The position numbers and the translations under genes were made by a program. From positions 32,001 through 96,000 of IMG/VR virus record IMGVR_UViG_3300045988_140928: a DNA stretch of 64,000 bases; one strand, given 5' to 3'. Positions 24,252 through 54,230 of the stretch are shown one piece after another. The notes under the pieces are model-generated. The model did no database searches, was not told where the DNA came from, and was given only the letters and a program-made list of their open reading frames with translations. Origin of the DNA: a virus. Numbering within the stretch: the stretch's first letter is position 1; every line of letters begins with the position of its first letter.

Positions 24252-25769
24252 CTAGTCGATTACACTAGAGGGAATTGACTTAGCTGTTGAGTTGTATAAT
24301 GTGTTATGGAGCAAAGCTACCCGCTTAGGGAAGATCAAAGCTAAACTTCCGTACCAGAGGTAAGCTTGATTTGTTGCAGTGCTGGTAATTGCGAGCGGGA
24401 ATTTAGTGATTGGCGCAAATTCAAGATAACGTACTGTAGTTGGACGATTTTCAATAATGAATACGTCACCAGTACCCGGAATAGTTTCGTTGTTATCTTC
24501 GAATACGATAGTACCGTCACCGGCCATCTTAGAGATAGCTACCCGACCTACAAGCCAGAATTGGTCATCACCCGGAACATCTGACTTTCTGTAAATTGCT
24601 ACATAATCAGGAATGTTAGCAACCATACGATTAAGAGTTGCAGTAATCTTAACAGTATCAGTAGGGTTCTTAACTTGAACCTTAACTTCATCAGAAGGTA
24701 ATGAGTCTTGTTGGCCTACAGCAACTACACGGTAAGTCAAGTCAACACCAACAGACTTGTTAAGAACAACTTTACCATCCTTGTCCTTCTTGTCGTCTGC
24801 CATAAACATACCAGCATCACCAGTAACAACTTCTGCCTTAACAGTTGGAGCTACTGGAGCGTCTTGATCTACAGCACCGTCCATATCAAGCTTCTTATCA
24901 AGGTCCATAATAGTTGAACCATGAAGAGCAATGTTACCACGAGCTGAAATGAACCGTTGAATATCAAGACCAACTTGCATACCAGCACCAGCTGAATTAG
25001 GTTGTAAGATACGTTGTGCGCCAAGGTGTTCGTTAACAAAATCAGCCTTAATACCTACAGGCATGTAAGCATCAGTTGGTGTACCATAACCTTGAGCAAT
25101 CTTAACAGCGGCTAAGTTAAGTGCTTGTGGCGTAAGAGAAGAACCACGCATATCAATCTTGTTATGTTCGTCCATTAACTTTTCAAGACCGTCAAACTCA
25201 AGACCTTCACCGTCTTGTTGAGCCAAGTCTGAGTCACCATAGAAAGTAGCATATTCAATAGCCTTAGCAATGTTGTTAATAGCTGAGATTTCCAACAGGA
25301 TGTTGGTATCAACAGTTGTATTAGCCCATTGCATTGCGAATGAACTACCCTTAGTGTCTACAAGGAACTTAACGTTAACAGTCTTTTGCCGTGCATGAGG
25401 TTCGTTAGAACGAAGCTTAGCAATTTCTGGTTGGAACATTTGGTGTCCTGTACGACCATGTGAGTAGTAAACAGTATACTTTTGAACTGTTTGGTTAACA
25501 GGTACCTTAGCAAGATCCTTATAGATTGTGTAATCTTCGTCTCCATAAGTAGAGATGTTAAGTTCTGGATCTAAAGCTTCCATACGATAAGCGGCACCAT
25601 CTGGTTGTGTTTCTGGTGTAATACCAGTACCAGCAGTAAAGGCTTTAACAACCCGGTCTGCCTTATCATTATTTAAAGACTTATTTAACTTGTCTTCTTG
25701 ATCTTTCTTAAAAACAGACTTTACTACAGTCTTTTTCTTTAATTCTGGCAAAATTTTCATCCTTTCCAT
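24252..25769 (-). CDS. major capsid protein
   Basis: About 500 aa, directly after the scaffold gene in a portal-protease-scaffold-capsid order and followed by a strong terminator. The start may be the second ATG (25760). Confidence 0.7.
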   Translation of the reverse strand: MERMKILPELKKKTVVKSVFKKDQEDKLNKSLNNDKADRVVKAFTAGTGITPETQPDGAAYRMEALDPELNISTYGDEDYTIYKDLAKVPVNQTVQKYTVYYSHGRTGHQMFQPEIAKLRSNEPHARQKTVNVKFLVDTKGSSFAMQWANTTVDTNILLEISAINNIAKAIEYATFYGDSDLAQQDGEGLEFDGLEKLMDEHNKIDMRGSSLTPQALNLAAVKIAQGYGTPTDAYMPVGIKADFVNEHLGAQRILQPNSAGAGMQVGLDIQRFISARGNIALHGSTIMDLDKKLDMDGAVDQDAPVAPTVKAEVVTGDAGMFMADDKKDKDGKVVLNKSVGVDLTYRVVAVGQQDSLPSDEVKVQVKNPTDTVKITATLNRMVANIPDYVAIYRKSDVPGDDQFWLVGRVAISKMAGDGTIVFEDNNETIPGTGDVFIIENRPTTVRYLEFAPITKFPLAITSTATNQAYLWYGSLALIFPKRVALLHNTLYNSTAKSIPSSVID

Positions 25770-25826: not shown

Positions 25827-26945
25827 CTAAATTTCGTTATATCTTTCAATAAAACTATCGGGAACTGTAGCACCTTTAAGTCCTCGAGTATCAGCTAAAA
25901 GACTCTTTAAAGCCCGCTTACGTTCCAAGTTAACGCCACTTTGTACACCGTCAAAGCCAAGCAATGACTTAGCAATTACATTTTCAAGAGCTTCCTTAGT
26001 AACGCCTTCTTCTTTAGGTGCTTCTACTGACTTGTCAACTGTATCTGCTTCTTCTGAACCAGTAGCAACTGCCTTACCAGTAGGGATTGACTTTTCAGCC
26101 TTATCTTCTTCTGCTGGTTCTTCAACTGATTTTTCAGCTTCATCAGCAGGTTCGTCCACAGACTTCTTAGCTTTATCTTCCTTGTCGTCTTTAGCTCCAC
26201 TGTCTGCACTATCTTCTGGTTCTTGGTTATCATCAGCAGACTTCTTAGCCTTATCCTTTTTATCAGCAGATTCTTCTACGCCAGCATCATCACCGGACTT
26301 TTCAACAGACTTTTCAGCTTGATCTTCAATAGGATCTTGCTTAGCTAAGAATGACTTAGCAATTTCCATAGAAGCCTCTGCTAATTCCTTATAAGACTTT
26401 TGCATTTCAGCCATAGTATCAACAGACTTAGTTAATGCGTCAATTACAGCATTAGTATCAAATGACTTAGAAGCTTCTTCGTGTCCCTTAGGGTCCTCAA
26501 CATCAGCTAATTCTTTATGCTGTTTAGCCTTAGTTTCTTCGGTCTTAGCGTCTGTGTTCTTTTCTACAACAGGTTCGTTTTCTGATTTTTCAGCTTCGTC
26601 AACCGACTTAGTTGACTTATCATCTTTATTACATACGCACTTGCTTAAAGGCTTGCCACACTTCTTGCAAGTTTCTTCGTCTTCTGACTTCTTAGCCTTA
26701 TCAGCAGATTCTTCTACATCATCATCGTCAACGTCTTTGGTTACCTTTTCATTATCGTCTGAAATAGTAGCTTGGTTAACATGCTTTTCAGCTTCATCTG
26801 TAGACTTAGTTGCTTCTTCTTGTGCTTTTACGTCTGAATCAGTCTTTTCAACCTCAGCAGACTTTTCTACCGTATCTTCTGTAGAAGCTAATGACTTACG
26901 AGCTTTATCAATAGCTTCCATAGCATTCTTTAATTTATCAGGCAA
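25827..26945 (-). CDS. scaffolding protein
   Basis: 372 aa, highly acidic and low complexity, with repeated AEKSV/DKAKKS units. Lies between the protease and the capsid gene. Confidence 0.65.
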   Translation of the reverse strand: MPDKLKNAMEAIDKARKSLASTEDTVEKSAEVEKTDSDVKAQEEATKSTDEAEKHVNQATISDDNEKVTKDVDDDDVEESADKAKKSEDEETCKKCGKPLSKCVCNKDDKSTKSVDEAEKSENEPVVEKNTDAKTEETKAKQHKELADVEDPKGHEEASKSFDTNAVIDALTKSVDTMAEMQKSYKELAEASMEIAKSFLAKQDPIEDQAEKSVEKSGDDAGVEESADKKDKAKKSADDNQEPEDSADSGAKDDKEDKAKKSVDEPADEAEKSVEEPAEEDKAEKSIPTGKAVATGSEEADTVDKSVEAPKEEGVTKEALENVIAKSLLGFDGVQSGVNLERKRALKSLLADTRGLKGATVPDSFIERYNEI

Positions 26946-26957
26946 AATTAATCCTCC

Positions 26958-27881
26958 TTAGTCATCATCAGTGATGTCGTCCGCACCACTTAAAATTCTT
27001 TCTAATCTATTAGTAGTTAAATTATTAGTATTGATTGCATGAACAACAGCTTGTGAATCGTTATAAGAAAGACCCTCGAACAATTGTAAGAACAAAATCA
27101 TTACATCGTCTCCTGTGTCCTTATGAGCTAAAATATCAGCTACTGAATTAGCAACTGGTCTTAATCCAATTTTACGAGCCTGTTTCATGTTCTCCGCTAA
27201 ACTAACCAATTGACCAGAAAGAGCTTCTGTTCTAAATGCTCCACCATCAGTCTGAGTACTAGGAGTAATCCCATGACCAGCAGTTAGAGCTTTATTTGTC
27301 TTATCTAATTTTACAGTCATACTTAGCATTGGCTTAGAATCTGTAGTATCTGGAGTCTTAGAAGGCTCTTTATCATCTTCTAGACCAAAAATAGATTTAG
27401 AAACCAATTCCCAAGTAGCATGAGTATTAGCTGGATTCTTAGTTACAGCCACACCAGTAATTTGAACTTGTCTAATGATAGAGTCGTCACTAGCATCTCG
27501 CTCTAAAACATTACCCTCAATTGAAAAGCCAAGTTGTCGATCAATATGATTATCTTTAATATTATGGTAAAGCTTAATAATATCTTGTACCTGTGGCATA
27601 TTCTTGAAAAGCTTAGCTTCAAGGAACAAACCTTTAGAATCCACATATGTATTTTCTGTTGGTACTCCGATTACTTGGTCACGATCATGTTCAAAGTCTA
27701 CTCAAACAAATCCTGAACTCTTCAAATAACTAGCGTCAATACCAGCAGGATCAATCGCTTCGCCCTGTAAATCAACATCTGGAGTAGAGGCATAACCCTT
27801 CACTAAGTAAGTATTGTCTTCGTCTCCAGACTTTTCAACTTTATCAAAAGGTAAAAATACGTTAAATGATTTATTTAGGAT
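26958..27881 (-). CDS. prohead serine protease (HK97/S78-like) interrupted by an in-frame TGA; probable AUC start
   Basis: The ORF-track part (26958..27644) has LGFSIEG and ITGVAVTKNPANTHA but lacks the catalytic-His block. The same frame continues upstream as ...YLVKGYASTPDVDLQGEAIDPAGIDASYLKSSGFV-TGA(27704-27702)-VDFEHDRDQVIGV. GGTGGTGA-N6-ATC lies at 27881. Confidence 0.6.
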
Positions 27882-27945
27882 TTTTAATCACCACCCATCT
27901 ACTTAGAATACATAAACTTTTCTGTTTAATAATATAGGAAACTAG

Positions 27946-29535
27946 CTAATCTGTATTCCCTACGTTAGTATCTTCTGGATTCTTAGGGTCTTGTTTATTA
28001 GGATCTTCCTTAGCATCTGGTTTCTTATCTAATGACTGTTCGTGTCCCGGCTTATAATCATTCTGGTGTTGTTGTTCTGCATTAGCTTCTGGATTCATCT
28101 TATCTTGAATAGCTAACCATTGAATAAGGTTATCAGAGTTACCCGGAATATCCGGTATATCAAGCTTAGGAAGATGCATTAACGCTCTCGCCTCTGAAAT
28201 TGTCATTCCATTCTTAAGCTTTAATGCTAATTCGTCTTGCAATTGCTTTTCCTTACCTTGGTCACTTGGACTAAAGACAAACATATAATCAGAGTCAACA
28301 TAGCGTAAGATCTTATCAGTCATTAGACGTTCAATATACTTCATAACAGGCTCTAACCCATTATTACGTGAAGCGTCAATTTTGGTCCTAGTAGTATTAC
28401 CCTCGTTTAAAGTACTACCACCAGTCTTACCATTAGCTCCTCCACGATTAGGAAAGTTGATCTCATCTGGCTGAATATTAAAATCAGCACAGATAATATT
28501 ATTAAGATAATTAAGGAAATTAATAAATTCCATATCCTTAGATGATTGTGTCATATTCACATATTTAGCATCATGAGCTTGGATAATGGGAATCTTCCAC
28601 GAACCATTAATTCCTTGTGCTGGAGTTAAATTACGCCTTAGAGCGTCTAAATTAGATTGAGATGTACCAGAACCATCACCCGGATCTAAAAGCAACAGAC
28701 CACGAGTCATACCACCTTGACTAAAGAAACGAGCATTGAACTGTTCTACATTAATGTGGTATTGAATATGTTCCATACCAGCTTCTACAGGAGAAAAACC
28801 ATAACCACCTGAATAAGGCTTATCTTGACTCCAATAAGTAGAGAATACTAATTCCTTACTGTTAAAATAGATTCTATCTTTATCACTAGCATTACTATTA
28901 ACTACCTGCACAAAAGATTTAGGCTTATCAATACTAGTGGGGTATTTATCAATTAAAACCGTAGAAGCGTCTACGTGGTTAAAATGATTTAATTTGTTAG
29001 AACGTTTACTCTCATAAACCCGTTCAATATTAACTTGGTCAAACACATAAAAGTCATAAATAATCTTAGCCAAGAAAGTAGGGAAATCATCTCGCCAATC
29101 TAATTGATCTTTACCTGTATAAAAGATAAAGTCCTCTAACCTTTTAGCAACATTCTTTTCATGTGTTGTCATATCACTAAGTTGCTTACCCTTTTTAACT
29201 ACTCTAAACCCATTATCGTCACTAGAAAGACGGGCAGGAGTAGCAAAGTTTAAGATCTGATTAGTTCTAGTTCTAATAATTGCTTGAACTAAAAGATCAT
29301 CTGCATAAGCTCTTAGTTGATCTTTCTTTCTTAAATAATAATCTTGATTAATCTTTTCACGCTGGGGATTTTGGCGACTATGACTGTCTACACCAATTTG
29401 AATATAAGCATTATCAACCCGCTGATCTGATTTCCCAGCTCTAAAACTTTTAGCAACTTCTTGCTTATTCAATTGTTCAAGATCAATATAATCATCAGCG
29501 TTATCAGAGCCGAACCAGCGATCTAAAAAACTCAT
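27946..29535 (-). CDS. portal protein
   Basis: 529 aa between the terminase and the protease. Confidence 0.7.
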   Translation of the reverse strand: MSFLDRWFGSDNADDYIDLEQLNKQEVAKSFRAGKSDQRVDNAYIQIGVDSHSRQNPQREKINQDYYLRKKDQLRAYADDLLVQAIIRTRTNQILNFATPARLSSDDNGFRVVKKGKQLSDMTTHEKNVAKRLEDFIFYTGKDQLDWRDDFPTFLAKIIYDFYVFDQVNIERVYESKRSNKLNHFNHVDASTVLIDKYPTSIDKPKSFVQVVNSNASDKDRIYFNSKELVFSTYWSQDKPYSGGYGFSPVEAGMEHIQYHINVEQFNARFFSQGGMTRGLLLLDPGDGSGTSQSNLDALRRNLTPAQGINGSWKIPIIQAHDAKYVNMTQSSKDMEFINFLNYLNNIICADFNIQPDEINFPNRGGANGKTGGSTLNEGNTTRTKIDASRNNGLEPVMKYIERLMTDKILRYVDSDYMFVFSPSDQGKEKQLQDELALKLKNGMTISEARALMHLPKLDIPDIPGNSDNLIQWLAIQDKMNPEANAEQQHQNDYKPGHEQSLDKKPDAKEDPNKQDPKNPEDTNVGNTD

Positions 29536-29648: not shown

Positions 29649-30911
29649 TTAGAACTCGGTTTCATTCCTAATCTCATATTCACGTTGTATATCAGTCTGC
29701 TCTGGAGTAAAGATGTCATTATCAAGATAATCAATCTGAGTTGACTTTCTACGCTTCATTGCGTCCTCTTTCATTAACTTATCAAGCCCAGCCATAGCAT
29801 ATACCATTGACTGGAAATAATGATCTGGGCCTTTACGTAAGATAACCTTACTATACTCAATTAAATGTGTTTGCTGATTTTCTTTTTCATCAGTACGAAT
29901 AACAACATTTTTACCATGGGTAATAAGCTTTCTAACTTCTGAGTCATTCTGAGAACCAGACCAGAAATGAATATCGCCACGTTTAATATTACCCATAAGA
30001 ATAACATTTTGAGTAAGCTTATCCAAAGTAACGGTGGAATCCGTATCATTAAAGTGTGCATTAAAATCACCATTAGTCTTTGCAGACCTAACAACAACCC
30101 CGTATACACGCTGAATACCATAATAAGCCATCATCTTTTGTACATAATTACCAGAAAATCCTAAATCAGGACAAATAATATCAGGTTGATACTGATTTAT
30201 CTTTCTCATGACTAAATTTAAGTCTTCTTCAATATGTTCTACACCAGTTGATCTAGGAATTTGAGTAAGATCCATAAGGTCAATTTGACCATTACCTCTC
30301 ATACCTAAAGTAACAATTGAATGCACGTGCTCTCCCCAATCAACACCAATAGATACATACTTGTAATTACTTCTATCGTCTGGCTTATTATAACTACTAT
30401 CAATATGAGTTAAAACGTCCTCATCTCTAAAGGTTGCACCTTTATCTTCATAAGGCATCCCAAGCGAGTAATTATAGAAGAACTGCTTGGAAGGTGCTCT
30501 CATTTCCTCTTCCTTCAGTTTATCCGCCGTGATCCACACTGCATCCATTTGTGAAATAGCATAACCATGCCTACGCCCTGAACCGGGACGAGTTACAACC
30601 CATCTTGCATCGTACCATCTATCCAGCAATTTTCCACATTTCTGACAAACAAACTGAAAAGTACCCGGCTGTACAACTCTAGCGTCTGTATCTATACCAT
30701 CTTTATTTACTTGTTTTACATTCTTCTCATAGTCAAGAACCTGTTCAAAACCACAATGAGGACAAGTATGTACCCAACGTCTCTGGTCTGATTGTAAAAA
30801 CAGACGATGTATCCCGTAATTTTGTACTGTAGGCGTTGACCATCTACTTACAATCTTATAGGGTGAAGACTGCATAGACTGGATTGCTGACTGCTCTGCT
30901 AAAGGATTTAA
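29649..30911 (-). CDS. terL: terminase large subunit, exon 3 (nuclease half); 5' boundary approximate
   Basis: The 421-aa ORF has no credible start context. It continues the exon-2 reading ...LALDEYDRIEN / LNPLAEQSAIQ. The intron ends in G just before TTA at 30911. Confidence 0.7.
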   Translation of the reverse strand, partial: LNPLAEQSAIQSMQSSPYKIVSRWSTPTVQNYGIHRLFLQSDQRRWVHTCPHCGFEQVLDYEKNVKQVNKDGIDTDARVVQPGTFQFVCQKCGKLLDRWYDARWVVTRPGSGRRHGYAISQMDAVWITADKLKEEEMRAPSKQFFYNYSLGMPYEDKGATFRDEDVLTHIDSSYNKPDDRSNYKYVSIGVDWGEHVHSIVTLGMRGNGQIDLMDLTQIPRSTGVEHIEEDLNLVMRKINQYQPDIICPDLGFSGNYVQKMMAYYGIQRVYGVVVRSAKTNGDFNAHFNDTDSTVTLDKLTQNVILMGNIKRGDIHFWSGSQNDSEVRKLITHGKNVVIRTDEKENQQTHLIEYSKVILRKGPDHYFQSMVYAMAGLDKLMKEDAMKRRKSTQIDYLDNDIFTPEQTDIQREYEIRNETEF

Positions 30912-32357
30912 CAATTATATTAACTACTTATTTCTAAGTAGATTAGACTATATCTTTATCCTACTAGGATATTCCCTATATAGTCGTTAGACCTGTTTTA
31001 ACTTGGTACGGGATTAGCCTGCCTTACTTAAATTATAAGGTTTAGCTTCTCTTATCACCTTATTACGGTAAGCCCGTTTAGGGGATATTTATTTAACAGA
31101 TATTACTATCTGTGACCGCTTAAATGCTTAGTTAAAATTGATTTTATTTGTTTCTTAGTCGTAATAGTATATGGAATACGAATTAAAGTAATATCATTAT
31201 TTTTACAATAGGTGTCCTTAAGATAATCTCGATATACTAAACTTTTATAATTATCTATACCACCCCAAAAACTAATAGGCTTATAATGTTGTTCTCCATC
31301 ATATTCAATTGCTATCTTTTTATTAGGAAACCAAAAGTCAAAATGAAGATTATTCTTATACTTTAAATCTGGAATAATATACCCATAAGTAAAATCATTT
31401 CCCTCAGAATAATGGAAATCTTGGGTTAAAGACGATAATATTAATCTTTCACCGTAACTTGATCGTTCATGTAAAGCACAATAAGGGCAACCTGTATGGT
31501 TATATTGAATATCACCATACCTAGCTTCATACACAGTATTGCATACTAAATGCTTAATCTTAATATGTTGGCGATTGCCTTTATACTCATCATCTTTAGT
31601 TAGCACTACATATTCACTACCTAGAATATCTTTAATATTCTCCCTTACCTGAGATAAAGGAGTCCTTTGATTAATTCCAATCTTAGGTGAACGATCTACA
31701 TAGGAACATTTTAGGCATCCATGACCCCTCAAAAAATCAGCAGGACGTGTCATATAAATATTACCACATCTATTATGCTTAACTTTTACTAAAGTATCTG
31801 AATTTTTATATATAGATAATACGATATACTCATTACCCCACTGTTTCTTAACTCTACTTAAAAATTCGCTATTAGTCATAGTTCTTAATTTAACTCTGTG
31901 TTCCTTAGCACATTCAGGACAACGCTGACCATTCAAAAAGCTATTAGGATTCATCATAAAATGATGATTGCATTTAAGATGAATAAACTCTACCTTAGTT
32001 TTATTATTCTTATAAGGGGGTAATACACTATATTCATCTTTAGTTAATGACTTAACTTCATCTCTAAACTGCTCATATGACTTTCTTCTACCACGCTTTT
32101 TATTACTACATTTCGGACAACGTTGACCACATAAAAAATTATGTGGTGTCATATCAAAAACAGTCCCACATTTGATATGCTTAAAAGTAGTTTTATCATG
32201 AGTTCGAGTATATTCACCTTGAAGTTCATACTCACCTCCAGTCAATAAAGTAACTTTATCATTAAATGTTTTCGTATTCCAATATATTCTTTTAGTCATT
32301 ATAATTTACCTCTTTTCAAGATAAATTATAACATGACAAGCTTTATAATGCTATTAA
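30912..32357 (-). mobile_element. group I intron A in terL, carrying an endonuclease ORF (boundaries +/-10 nt)
   Basis: Interrupts terL right after the Walker-B-like LALDEYD. Stops occur in all terL frames. Its 3' 190 nt share colinear blocks with intron B, e.g. 30977-31016 vs 32641-32679 TATATAGTCGTTAGACCT.TTTTA.CTTGGTACGGGATTA (minus strand ...GGTCTAACGACTATATA). Confidence 0.65.
31106..32299 (-). CDS. intron-encoded homing-endonuclease-like protein (zinc-ribbon repeats plus PD-(D/E)XK)
   Basis: 397 aa, paralogue of 9314..10459. C-terminus LHFDFWFPNKKIAIEYDGEQHY. It lies wholly inside the terL interruption. Confidence 0.7.
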   Translation of the reverse strand: MTKRIYWNTKTFNDKVTLLTGGEYELQGEYTRTHDKTTFKHIKCGTVFDMTPHNFLCGQRCPKCSNKKRGRRKSYEQFRDEVKSLTKDEYSVLPPYKNNKTKVEFIHLKCNHHFMMNPNSFLNGQRCPECAKEHRVKLRTMTNSEFLSRVKKQWGNEYIVLSIYKNSDTLVKVKHNRCGNIYMTRPADFLRGHGCLKCSYVDRSPKIGINQRTPLSQVRENIKDILGSEYVVLTKDDEYKGNRQHIKIKHLVCNTVYEARYGDIQYNHTGCPYCALHERSSYGERLILSSLTQDFHYSEGNDFTYGYIIPDLKYKNNLHFDFWFPNKKIAIEYDGEQHYKPISFWGGIDNYKSLVYRDYLKDTYCKNNDITLIRIPYTITTKKQIKSILTKHLSGHR

Positions 32358-53840: not shown

Positions 53841-53844
53841 ACAA

Positions 53845-53917
53845 TGTCCCGACCGAGACTCGGACTCGGATTTTCGGATTAGAAATCCGATGTTTTATCC
53901 AGTTAGACTATCGAGAC
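53845..53917 (-). tRNA. tRNA-Arg (anticodon TCT)
   Basis: Hand fold: GTCTCGA TA GTCT-AACTGGATA-AAAC A TCGGA-TTTCTAA-TCCGA AAAT CCGAG-TCCGAGT-CTCGG TCGGGAC A. One D-stem mismatch, C at position 55. Confidence 0.65.
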
Positions 53918-54057
53918 AAGTGTGCTATTAACACACATGGTTACACTTATACGTCCGAACACAAATTACAAACCAAAATAAGAAACCACTATTCAACATC
54001 AAATGTCATTAAGAAGGAAGGACCTAGTTACCATCACCCAAAGATAGCTAAGCCCAA

Positions 54058-54130
54058 TTGCGGAGACAGGACTTGAACCTGTGACCTCCAGATAATGAGT
54101 CTGGCGAGCTACCAACTGCTCCACCCCACG
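54058..54130 (-). tRNA. tRNA-Met (anticodon CAT) with initiator-like C1:A72 mismatch
   Basis: Hand fold: CGTGGGG TG GAGC-AGTTGGT-AGCTC G CCAGA-CTCATTA-TCTGG AGGTC ACAGG-TTCAAGT-CCTGT CTCCGCA A. Confidence 0.75.
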
Positions 54131-54230
54131 ATAAGAAAGGATTGGTCATTTGACTAACATTTAATTAATGTATTTAACCAACAATTTTATAATACACCTG
54201 TCTTATCATAAAAGCAAGAGGAATCGTGAA

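Follow-up and report, generated by a model that had tools for sequence, protein, structure and literature searches.

The programmed +1 frameshift of prfB (RF2) takes place with UGA in the A site of the ribosome and a shift-prone tRNA in the P site, and is accompanied by a Shine-Dalgarno-like element 3 nt upstream and a weak E-site codon. Hopping of tRNA-Val was reportedly described by O'Connor et al. in 1989. Synthetic stop-hops were described in E. coli reporters by Weiss, Dunn, Atkins and Gesteland in 1987 and included +6 hops such as CUU UAG CUA, the product of a stop-hop being two residues shorter than the corresponding read-through product (PMC5009743). According to a 2016 review, natural in-frame stop hopping was not known and some cases of 'read-through' were suspected to be hops (PMC5009743); in the literature searched, no later report of a natural stop-hop was found, and none on prohead proteases. 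In phage T4, the bypass insert of gene 60 shields the DNA against the MobA endonuclease, together with which it moves (bioRxiv 10.1101/2022.08.31.505936; PMC5009743). The locus described here is a prohead protease gene interrupted by an in-frame stop codon, located on the minus strand of a viral DNA stretch of 64,000 nucleotides (IMG/VR virus record IMGVR_UViG_3300045988_140928, positions 32,001 to 96,000), which was analysed as a whole and is referred to as the window. Unless a contig is named, all coordinates are those of the whole 64-kb window. Comparison with related loci moderately favours a short translational bypass between two valine codons as the means by which this gene is decoded.

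The interrupted protease gene and its conservation

The window belongs to a Herelleviridae-type myovirus, the closest GenBank relatives among the tblastn matches listed being the Lactobacillus phages LfeInf (50% identity), LP65 and Semele. By direct reading and translation, the protease frame is open from 27887 to 26958 (-) and contains a single in-frame TGA at 27704-27702; another in-frame TGA (27890-88) immediately precedes the opening of the frame at 27887. The minus strand at the site reads AGT TCA GGA TTT GTT TGA GTA GAC TTT GAA CAT GAT CGT, with GGA at 27713-11, TTT at 27710-08, GTT at 27707-05, TGA at 27704-02, GTA at 27701-699 and CAT at 27689-87. Translation across the stop gives ...SSGFV*VDFEHDRDQVIGVPT..., identical to the text given in an earlier interpretation of this DNA that was made from its letters alone (hereafter the sequence-only reading). 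That interpretation had identified the gene as a prohead protease, had observed that the called open reading frame (ORF) starting at 27644 contains LGFSIEG and TKNPAN but not the histidine block, and had seen no ATG, GTG or TTG between the UGA and the histidine codon, all of which was borne out. The called ORF (GTG 27644 to TAA 26958, 228 aa) has LGFSIEG (Ser codon TCA at 27524-22) and TKNPAN and is without the histidine. The TGA lies five codons ahead of the catalytic His codon (CAT, 27687..27689, -), which aligns with H63 of the homologues and is spanned by the Pfam S78 match, and GTA GAC TTT GAA alone stands between the two. As had also been claimed, the catalytic histidine is joined to the N-terminal 61 codons only if the ribosome passes the stop.

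The N-terminal coding segment comprises 59 codons from ATC to the Val codon GTT at which take-off is proposed (27705..27881, -), aligns to the N-termini of homologues and forms part of the Pfam S78 match. The C-terminal coding segment (26958..27698, -) contains the His block, the Ser block, TKNPAN, a C-terminal helical domain and the terminal TAA (26960-58), as seen from the ORF call, Pfam and PHROG. The Pfam PF04586 (Peptidase_S78) match of the joined protein scored 48.9 bits (gathering cut-off 21; E 1e-12) and extends from residue 20 to residue 164, bridging the stop; the joined protein also matched phrog_1028 (head maturation protease) along its full length (E 7e-109). When the His and Ser blocks were aligned with those of homologues, H63 and S118 were invariant in 68/68, the window having EHD and GFSIEG at these places; the homologues do not start after the position of the stop and carry their histidine at the aligned place. 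The interrupted gene is the only Peptidase_S78 gene of the head module, in which it is located between the portal and the major head protein; its product is a genuine member of the Peptidase_S78/HK97-family prohead serine proteases.

The motif G-[FYW]-[VIL]-[DN]-[FYWH]-E-H was present in 105/105 full-length homologues, none of which had an insertion, and G57 was invariant in 68/68, as was H63. Compared with these homologues, the interrupted genes carry two extra codons (TGA GTR, or TAA GTA in L005) or three (TGA CCG/CCC GTA). Because the stop lies within this insertion of two or three codons in the alignment, it replaces no homologous residue. In the window, the insertion takes the form of a 6-nt coding gap consisting of the stop and the next codon (27699..27704, -), which is absent from homologues. 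On the comparative evidence, deleting the stop and GTR restores G-F-V-D-F/Y-E-H, and the gap measures 6 or 9 nt. In an AlphaFold (AF2) model of the 91%-identical relative P0001 (pLDDT 89-97 over residues 21-160), the site falls in the middle of a four-residue strand, W58-F61 (pLDDT ~96), that runs directly into E62-H63. A Foldseek search with this model returned herpesvirus proteases (E 3e-5, probability 1.0), and the predicted protease fold is herpesvirus assemblin-like.

An interruption at the same codon position was found in nine distinct sequences from 12 contigs and ~7 lineages, which stem from independent JGI, ENA and Logan/SRA assemblies. The set comprises the window, L063 and L005 (one lineage, 95-97% identical), L114, L115, L016, L019/L020, L017/L018 and L107/L108. 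The site reads GGA TTT GTT TGA GTA GAY in the window, L063 and L114, GGA TTT GTT TAA GTA GAT in L005, GGA TTT GTC TGA GTA GAT in L115, GGA TTT GTC TGA GTG GAC in L016 and L019/L020, GGA TTT GTC TGA CCG GTA GAT in L017/L018 and GGA TTT GTC TGA CCC GTA GAT in L107/L108. The proposed A-site stop (27702..27704, -) is TGA in 8/9 sequences and TAA in L005, and the proposed landing codon (GTA, 27699..27701, -), after which decoding would resume at GAC (27698-96), is GTA or GTG in all interrupted genes. The flanking codons specify Val on both sides in 9/9 sequences, always as GTY on the 5' and GTR on the 3' side, and, whatever the frame, no other GUN triplet occurs between the take-off codon and this GTR. 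In the 48 closest uninterrupted clusters, one position corresponds to these two, and it is occupied by Ile in 58% and by Val in 42% of cases.

The 5' context of the stop, GGA TTT GTT (27705..27713, -), is conserved as well, with GGA TTT GTY invariant in 9/9 interrupted sequences. The invariance of GGA TTT before the take-off codon extends to the synonymous sites, although GGA accounts for 22% of the Gly codons of the window and each of the four further Gly codons in the 153-nt alignment is variable. Uninterrupted relatives have GGT or GGG instead of GGA, the site reading GGT TGG GTT GAT in L006 and L008, GGT TGG ATT GAC in L007, GGT TTC GTT GAC in L109, GGT TTT ATA GAC in L116, GGG TTT GTT GAT in Semele and GGT TAT ATT GAC in LfeInf. 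The frozen synonymous sites of GGA and TTT therefore point to a constraint at the level of the mRNA.

Between the window and L005, the 61 codons from the frame opening at 27887 to the take-off codon show 10 synonymous and 0 non-synonymous differences; in the 25 codons that follow the gap up to the first canonical start, the corresponding numbers are 6 and 0. Between lineages, pS amounted to 0.67-0.88, which is near saturation, and pN/pS to 0.08-0.34. Since purifying selection has acted on both sides over near-saturated synonymous divergence, both halves of the gene have long been translated in the protease frame. The sequence-only reading had also allowed for a nonsense mutation or a sequencing error, which is contradicted by the retention of the stop in ~7 lineages at pS 0.67-0.88, with pN/pS of 0.00-0.34 on both sides.

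An alternative genetic code in which UGA stands for Trp or Gly (codes 4/25), or recoding throughout the phage, was considered and, within the window, rejected. TGA terminates 8/53 long ORFs of the window, in which ORFs of 1250, 1110 and 1077 aa are intact, and the TGA of the protease gene is the sole same-frame internal stop that joins two long open stretches inside a gene, the others corresponding to gene junctions or non-coding frames. A tRNA search of the window yielded only Arg(tct) and Met(cat), at 53844-54131 (-), with no tRNA-Val and no suppressor tRNA.

As a check of the base calls, GenBank was searched for a near-identical phage, and none was found. The 761 GenBank phage matches obtained by tblastn each lay in a single place at no more than 50% identity, and the 40 rows listed were single uninterrupted alignment pieces. 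Of seven relatives in IMG/VR, six are without the interruption and one, L014, has a state that was unreadable owing to indel noise. In this contig (IMGVR_UViG_3300043781_000002), small frame-breaking indels at 1580-1660, in the N-terminal third of the protease gene, have the appearance of noise from assembly or long reads, in contrast to the interruption, which is clean and conserved. Scans of IMG/VR with a DNA pattern for the interruption and of GTDB genomes with the interruption pattern gave no matches, and a metagenome pattern scan with a variable gap gave 86 stretches, 85 of which were chance matches and only one of which (L063) was genuine. A protein search returned uninterrupted relatives at ~90% identity (P0001-P0005) and many N-terminally truncated gene calls. 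Over many contigs of these phages, gene callers yield dozens of truncated protease ORF variants, which stem from either the gap or the ATC/ATT start described below.

Decoding across the gap

On the basis of the sequence comparisons, the protease is probably, by a modest measure of confidence, decoded by a short programmed translational bypass ('stop-hop') from Val GUY to GUR, of +6 or +9. Briefly, translation would start at ATC 27881 after a strong ribosome-binding site and proceed to codon 59, where peptidyl-tRNA-Val would occupy GUU (27707-05) in the P site with UGA in the A site. In a fraction of the ribosomes, the anticodon of tRNA-Val would unpair instead of termination taking place, after which the mRNA would slide by 6 nt, tRNA-Val would re-pair on GUA (27701-699) and decoding would resume at GAC. 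Nine nucleotides would in this way specify one Val, giving a product (...SSGFVDFEHD...) collinear with all uninterrupted homologues, and non-hopping ribosomes would release an N-terminal fragment of 59 residues. A U34-modified tRNA-Val(UAC) that reads GUY weakly and GUR well could account for the direction of the hop. By analogy with prfB, pairing with the anti-Shine-Dalgarno sequence is conceivable for the (A/G)GGA, which precedes the P-site codon by 3 nt, and UUU may act as a weakly held E-site codon, both of which would stimulate the hop. The weak ATC start and the hop may jointly keep the dose of protease low.

The hop is favoured because it alone yields the universal motif and its spacing in every lineage. 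Valine frozen on both sides of the stop is a prediction of codon matching, which neither read-through nor re-initiation needs, the occurrence of TGA or TAA and of gaps of 6 or 9 nt fits an untranslated gap better than miscoding by tRNA-Trp, and the invariance of GGA and TTT indicates the mRNA-level constraint mentioned above. Single-nucleotide frameshifting is excluded: the downstream ORF is in the zero frame, and in both other frames a TAG is reached within two codons (GAG TAG). A shift of the prfB type (+1), and likewise one of -1, was accordingly rejected. The computed MH+ values are 1295.565 for SSGFVDFEHDR (hop) and 1580.713 for SSGFVWVDFEHDR (Trp read-through).

The hop was weighed against other routes by which the gene might be expressed, among them programmed read-through, by a near-cognate tRNA (tRNA-Trp on UGA) or by a suppressor tRNA encoded outside the window. 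This is possible but judged unlikely. Its product, ...GFV-X-VDFEH..., would contain two extra residues next to the active site, or three in the variant with a CCS codon, and it would be in keeping with a downstream frame that is the zero frame in both gap variants, with TGA as the stop in 8/9 sequences and with CCG (L017) and CCC (L107) being synonymous for Pro. UGA is said to be the leakiest stop codon in several Firmicutes (Lovett et al. 1991), the window covers 64 kb of a ~150-kb contig, beyond which a suppressor tRNA may lie, and insertion of Trp would give W-V-D-F-E-H, matching the W58-H63 strand of the closest uninterrupted relatives (GGT TGG GTT GAT). However, 0/105 homologues have an insertion and Gly is invariant just before the aromatic residue, whereas read-through would place Val at the position of this Gly or, in the 9-nt variant, Pro at the aromatic position. 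It would also leave unexplained the frozen synonymous sites of GGA and TTT and the Val/Val flanks, though Ile is commoner in uninterrupted relatives; the TAA of L005 is unreadable by tRNA-Trp, and no other gene of the window has an internal stop, which argues against a general change of the code. The view of the sequence-only reading that an active protease requires passage of the UGA thus stands, whereas the insertion of Trp that it preferred, through a change of TGG to TGA, is not favoured in view of the insertion of two or three codons, the TAA in L005, the Pro codon of the 9-nt variant and the matched Val codons. Its idea of a dosage device is plausible and consistent with the non-canonical ATC start.

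A split gene, in which termination is followed by re-initiation at the adjacent GTR with the upstream GGA as a weak ribosome-binding site and in which polypeptides of ~59 and ~246 aa assemble, is considered very unlikely. GTG follows the stop in L016 and L019, the gene calls P0038 and P0044 begin there (MDYEHD/MDFEHD), and the spacing of 9 nt from GGA to GTR equals that from the ribosome-binding site to the ATC start; moreover, in nrdA and Topo2L, homing endonucleases have divided a phage gene into halves that interact (bioRxiv 10.1101/2022.08.31.505936). Yet the codon is GTA in 7/9 sequences, which mismatches the initiator anticodon at two positions, and ATG or TTG in none, GGA alone makes a very weak ribosome-binding site, and the extra CCS codon parts the stop from GTA in L017 and L107. 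In addition, the four-residue beta-strand would be cut through its middle, two residues ahead of the catalytic His, and the strict Val before the stop would have no explanation. That the gene is non-functional or an artefact, be it a nonsense mutation, an assembly error or a pseudogene decaying in defective phage genomes, is scarcely credible. Metagenome or SRA assemblies are the source of every interrupted sequence, none being from a cultured phage, the feature occurs in no GenBank phage among the matches listed, and the gene is also without a canonical start codon. These points are set against an identical structure obtained from independent assemblers and samples, the purifying selection seen on both sides over near-saturated synonymous divergence, the intact state of the other ORFs of the window, the status of the interrupted protease as the only Peptidase_S78 gene in the head module, and an insertion of 6 nt, which is atypical of sequencing errors.

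Several points weigh against the stop-hop itself, the evidence for which is comparative and drawn from sequence alone. Synthetic stop-hops have been described as low-level, with an efficiency on the order of 1%, and a low-level hop combined with a non-AUG start seems to provide too little protease unless there are further stimulators. No convincing conserved RNA structure was detected at the site (z-scores -0.8 to -2.2, not significant), only a 4-bp hairpin, GUYU[GAGU]RGAY, being common to the interrupted genes, and no nascent peptide is specific to the interruption, the uninterrupted P0018 having the same ...INSGF context. The third bases of the take-off and landing codons always differ (Y vs R), so that the hop requires either a single tRNA-Val able to read both GUY and GUR or re-pairing through no more than two bases. 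Gaps of 6 and 9 nt alike are multiples of 3, the TAA variant is from a single contig (L005), and an alternative alignment would pair TGA GTR with TGG GTT (Trp-Val), the codons of the closest uninterrupted relatives. An Rfam search of the site gave no match; a longer hairpin of the window and L017 was examined as a candidate conserved structure and rejected, as it is lost in L115, L114 and L019. The remainder of the probability was reserved for readings that were not considered.

Start codon, mosaic module and neighbouring genes

The protease frame is preceded by the ribosome-binding site GGTGGTGA (27888..27895, -; direct reading), the last three bases of which are the frame-opening TGA. A GGTGG/GGGGG core precedes the protease gene in all relatives, also in LfeInf and Semele. 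In the window, the ribosome-binding site is followed by TTA AAA ATC CTA AAT AAA TCA TTT AAC, in which ATC (27879..27881, -), 9 nt after the GGTGG core and at a conserved spacing, is the probable start codon. By direct reading, no ATG, GTG or TTG is present between 27887 and 27803, and none before the conserved F-N-V-F-L-P-F-D motif; this ATC, at which the range considered in the sequence-only reading begins, is the only near-cognate start of the N-terminal segment of the window. ATC or ATT is located 8-9 nt after a GGNGG core in 12 related loci, and the codon two positions upstream varies (TTA, TTG, ATA, GTA). In L116 (1450-1475), the frame opens directly at ATT after TAA, and L109, which is uninterrupted at the hop site, is also without a canonical start and is called from Met-101. 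The interrupted genes all have ATC; among the uninterrupted ones, some have ATT/ATC and others TTG 12 nt after the ribosome-binding site.

Shortly after ATC, codon changes that are synonymous (CTA/CTG, TCA/TCG) argue that the frame is translated from there on. On the sequence comparison the clade, as exemplified by the window, L116, L109 and L007, appears to have no ATG, GTG or TTG start for the protease and to initiate it at AUC/AUU. Gene callers therefore give assorted truncated or extended N-termini. GTG 27803 and GTG 27644 were rejected as real starts, as they are replaced by GTC and GTA in L005 and L063 and so are not conserved. A five-codon mini-ORF, ATG GGT GGT GAT TAA (27884-27898, -), overlaps the ribosome-binding site in another frame; it has GTG- or ATG-started equivalents in several relatives, L063 and L114 not being among them, and is probably incidental. 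A bypass from this mini-ORF to GAT 27845 was also considered and rejected, because the SFNVFLPF codons that would be skipped are conserved as protein and the start of the mini-ORF is absent in L063 and L114.

The region that begins with the ribosome-binding site and start codon and ends at the recoding site forms a mosaic module of 240 nt (27681..27920, -) that is marked by a dip in identity. When the window was compared with the uninterrupted, ~90%-identical L008 and L006, identity was 0.85-1.00 in most bins of the flanks, 0.58-0.75 in the module and at least 0.90 again at 27680. The same dip, ending at the gap, was seen between the interrupted L017 and the uninterrupted L116. A neighbour-joining tree of the protease domain does not group the interrupted genes together but places them among uninterrupted ones, and a single origin was rejected on this ground. 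Since the identity dips end at the gap and the interrupted genes are scattered in the tree, the segment from the start to the gap behaves as an exchangeable allele; judged from these sequences, recombination of the N-terminal module would explain the scatter better than repeated gain.

Free-standing genes for HNH homing endonucleases of one family (phrog_559) lie between portal and protease in L019 (15-1214), L114 (1-1139) and L006 (420-1433), L019 and L114 being carriers with the interruption and L006 a carrier without it. In the window, portal and protease are adjacent, and an HNH gene (31106-32299, -; 397 aa; phrog_559, E 6e-90) adjoins the terminase gene. The large-terminase ORF (29649-30914, -), directly upstream of which this HNH gene is located, matches only positions 165-563 of the 576 positions of its profile, the N-terminus with the ATPase being missing, and looks like a gene split by a mobile element or intron. 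In a test for co-mobilisation, L019 and L114, both interrupted endonuclease carriers, showed a uniform identity of ~75% with no break at the gap, and thus no evidence of recent co-mobilisation.

By analogy with gene 60, an origin of the gap via endonucleases would be attractive. The support for a link to endonucleases is circumstantial and consists of the HNH genes near the protease gene or terL and of a gap that appears to spread together with the ATC start as a module of ~200 nt with the gap at its 3' edge. Taken further, the protease site might represent the first natural, selected in-frame stop-hop, with the gap of 6-9 nt as a minimal counterpart of the T4 gene 60 insert, an untranslated insertion that lies where the protease gene is most conserved and encodes the active site and that shields DNA from a homing endonuclease; this proposal is speculative and regarded as improbable. 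The same holds for its corollary, no less doubtful, that a hop in a prfB-like GGA-N3 context would make the insert harmless and, together with the weak start, would set a low, release-factor-dependent dose of protease.

In the head module of the window, the portal gene (27946-29535) is followed by the protease gene, an acidic ORF (25827-26945) and the gene for the major head protein (24252-25769), the C-terminal part of terL lying nearby. The acidic ORF (-) encodes a highly acidic, repeat-rich protein of 372 aa with AEKS/DKAKKS motifs that gave no PHROG match and, by its position, is probably the scaffold. The C-terminal domain of the protease (27250-27330, residues ~189-223) shares a motif of ~35 residues with the N-terminal part of the major head protein (25545-25660, residues ~38-75), as seen from secondary tblastn matches and reciprocal PHROG cross-matches. 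The two versions, ALTAGHGITPSTQTDGGAFRTEAL and AFTAGTGITPETQPDGAAYRMEAL, are ~60% identical and may constitute a capsid-interior docking or cleavage motif.

Comparison with known recoding systems

The protease site is a concrete candidate for a natural stop-hop in a phage gene that is essential and easily assayed, and its natural variants (TGA/TAA, gaps of 6 or 9 nt, GTT/GTC for take-off and GTA/GTG for landing) constitute a ready-made mutational series. For annotation, the split protease loci should be merged into one coding sequence. The combination of a non-AUG start with a recoded stop, which would attenuate expression twice over, suggests that a potentially toxic head protease is tightly limited, and a logic like that of the T4 gene 60 cassette is hinted at by the homing endonucleases nearby and by the mosaic module.

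The HK97-family proteases of Herelleviridae (LfeInf, LP65, Semele, P100 and the phage K group) resemble the protease of the window in family, gene order and His and Ser blocks, at 40-50% identity. In the annotations of LfeInf, LP65, Semele and P100, the gene is in one piece and starts with ATG, GTG or TTG, whereas the clade studied here has ATC or ATT and, in a subset, the coding gap.

With prfB, the site shares an A-site UGA, what would be a shift-prone tRNA in the P site, a weak UUU in the E site and, at a distance of exactly 3 nt before the P-site codon, a Shine-Dalgarno-like element, represented in the protease gene only by (A/G)GGA; the efficiency of the proposed hop would likewise depend on release-factor activity. 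In contrast to the +1 movement in prfB, the shift in the protease gene would be +6 or +9, to a non-overlapping codon, the +1 frame being closed (GAG TAG). The Shine-Dalgarno-like element of the protease gene has only 3-4 nt, and no autoregulatory logic is evident, unlike in prfB.

T4 gene 60 is likewise a phage gene with a stop after the take-off codon, a matched landing codon and a gap in a highly conserved part of an enzyme, and common to both cases are HNH endonuclease genes nearby and the mosaic inheritance of the segment. In gene 60, the gap has 50 nt and leads from GGA to GGA, whereas in the protease gene it has 6 or 9 nt and would lead from Val GUY to GUR, with resumption in frame. No counterpart of the NTE nascent-peptide signal or of the 5' and take-off stem-loops of gene 60 was found at the protease site, which shows no sequence homology to the cassette. 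Membership of the MobA-linked family of gene 60-type bypass cassettes was rejected, as gap length, codons and signals all differ.

The likeness to synthetic stop-hops lies in matched synonymous codons around an in-frame stop, in nine nucleotides giving one amino acid and in the retention of the zero frame; neither a long gap nor an elaborate signal is needed in principle. The synthetic stop-hops are artificial and low-level, whereas the protease gene is a natural essential gene in which the interruption has been kept across diverged phage lineages. The protease site further differs from them in the frozen synonymous sites of the upstream GGA TTT and in the variant with a 9-nt gap.

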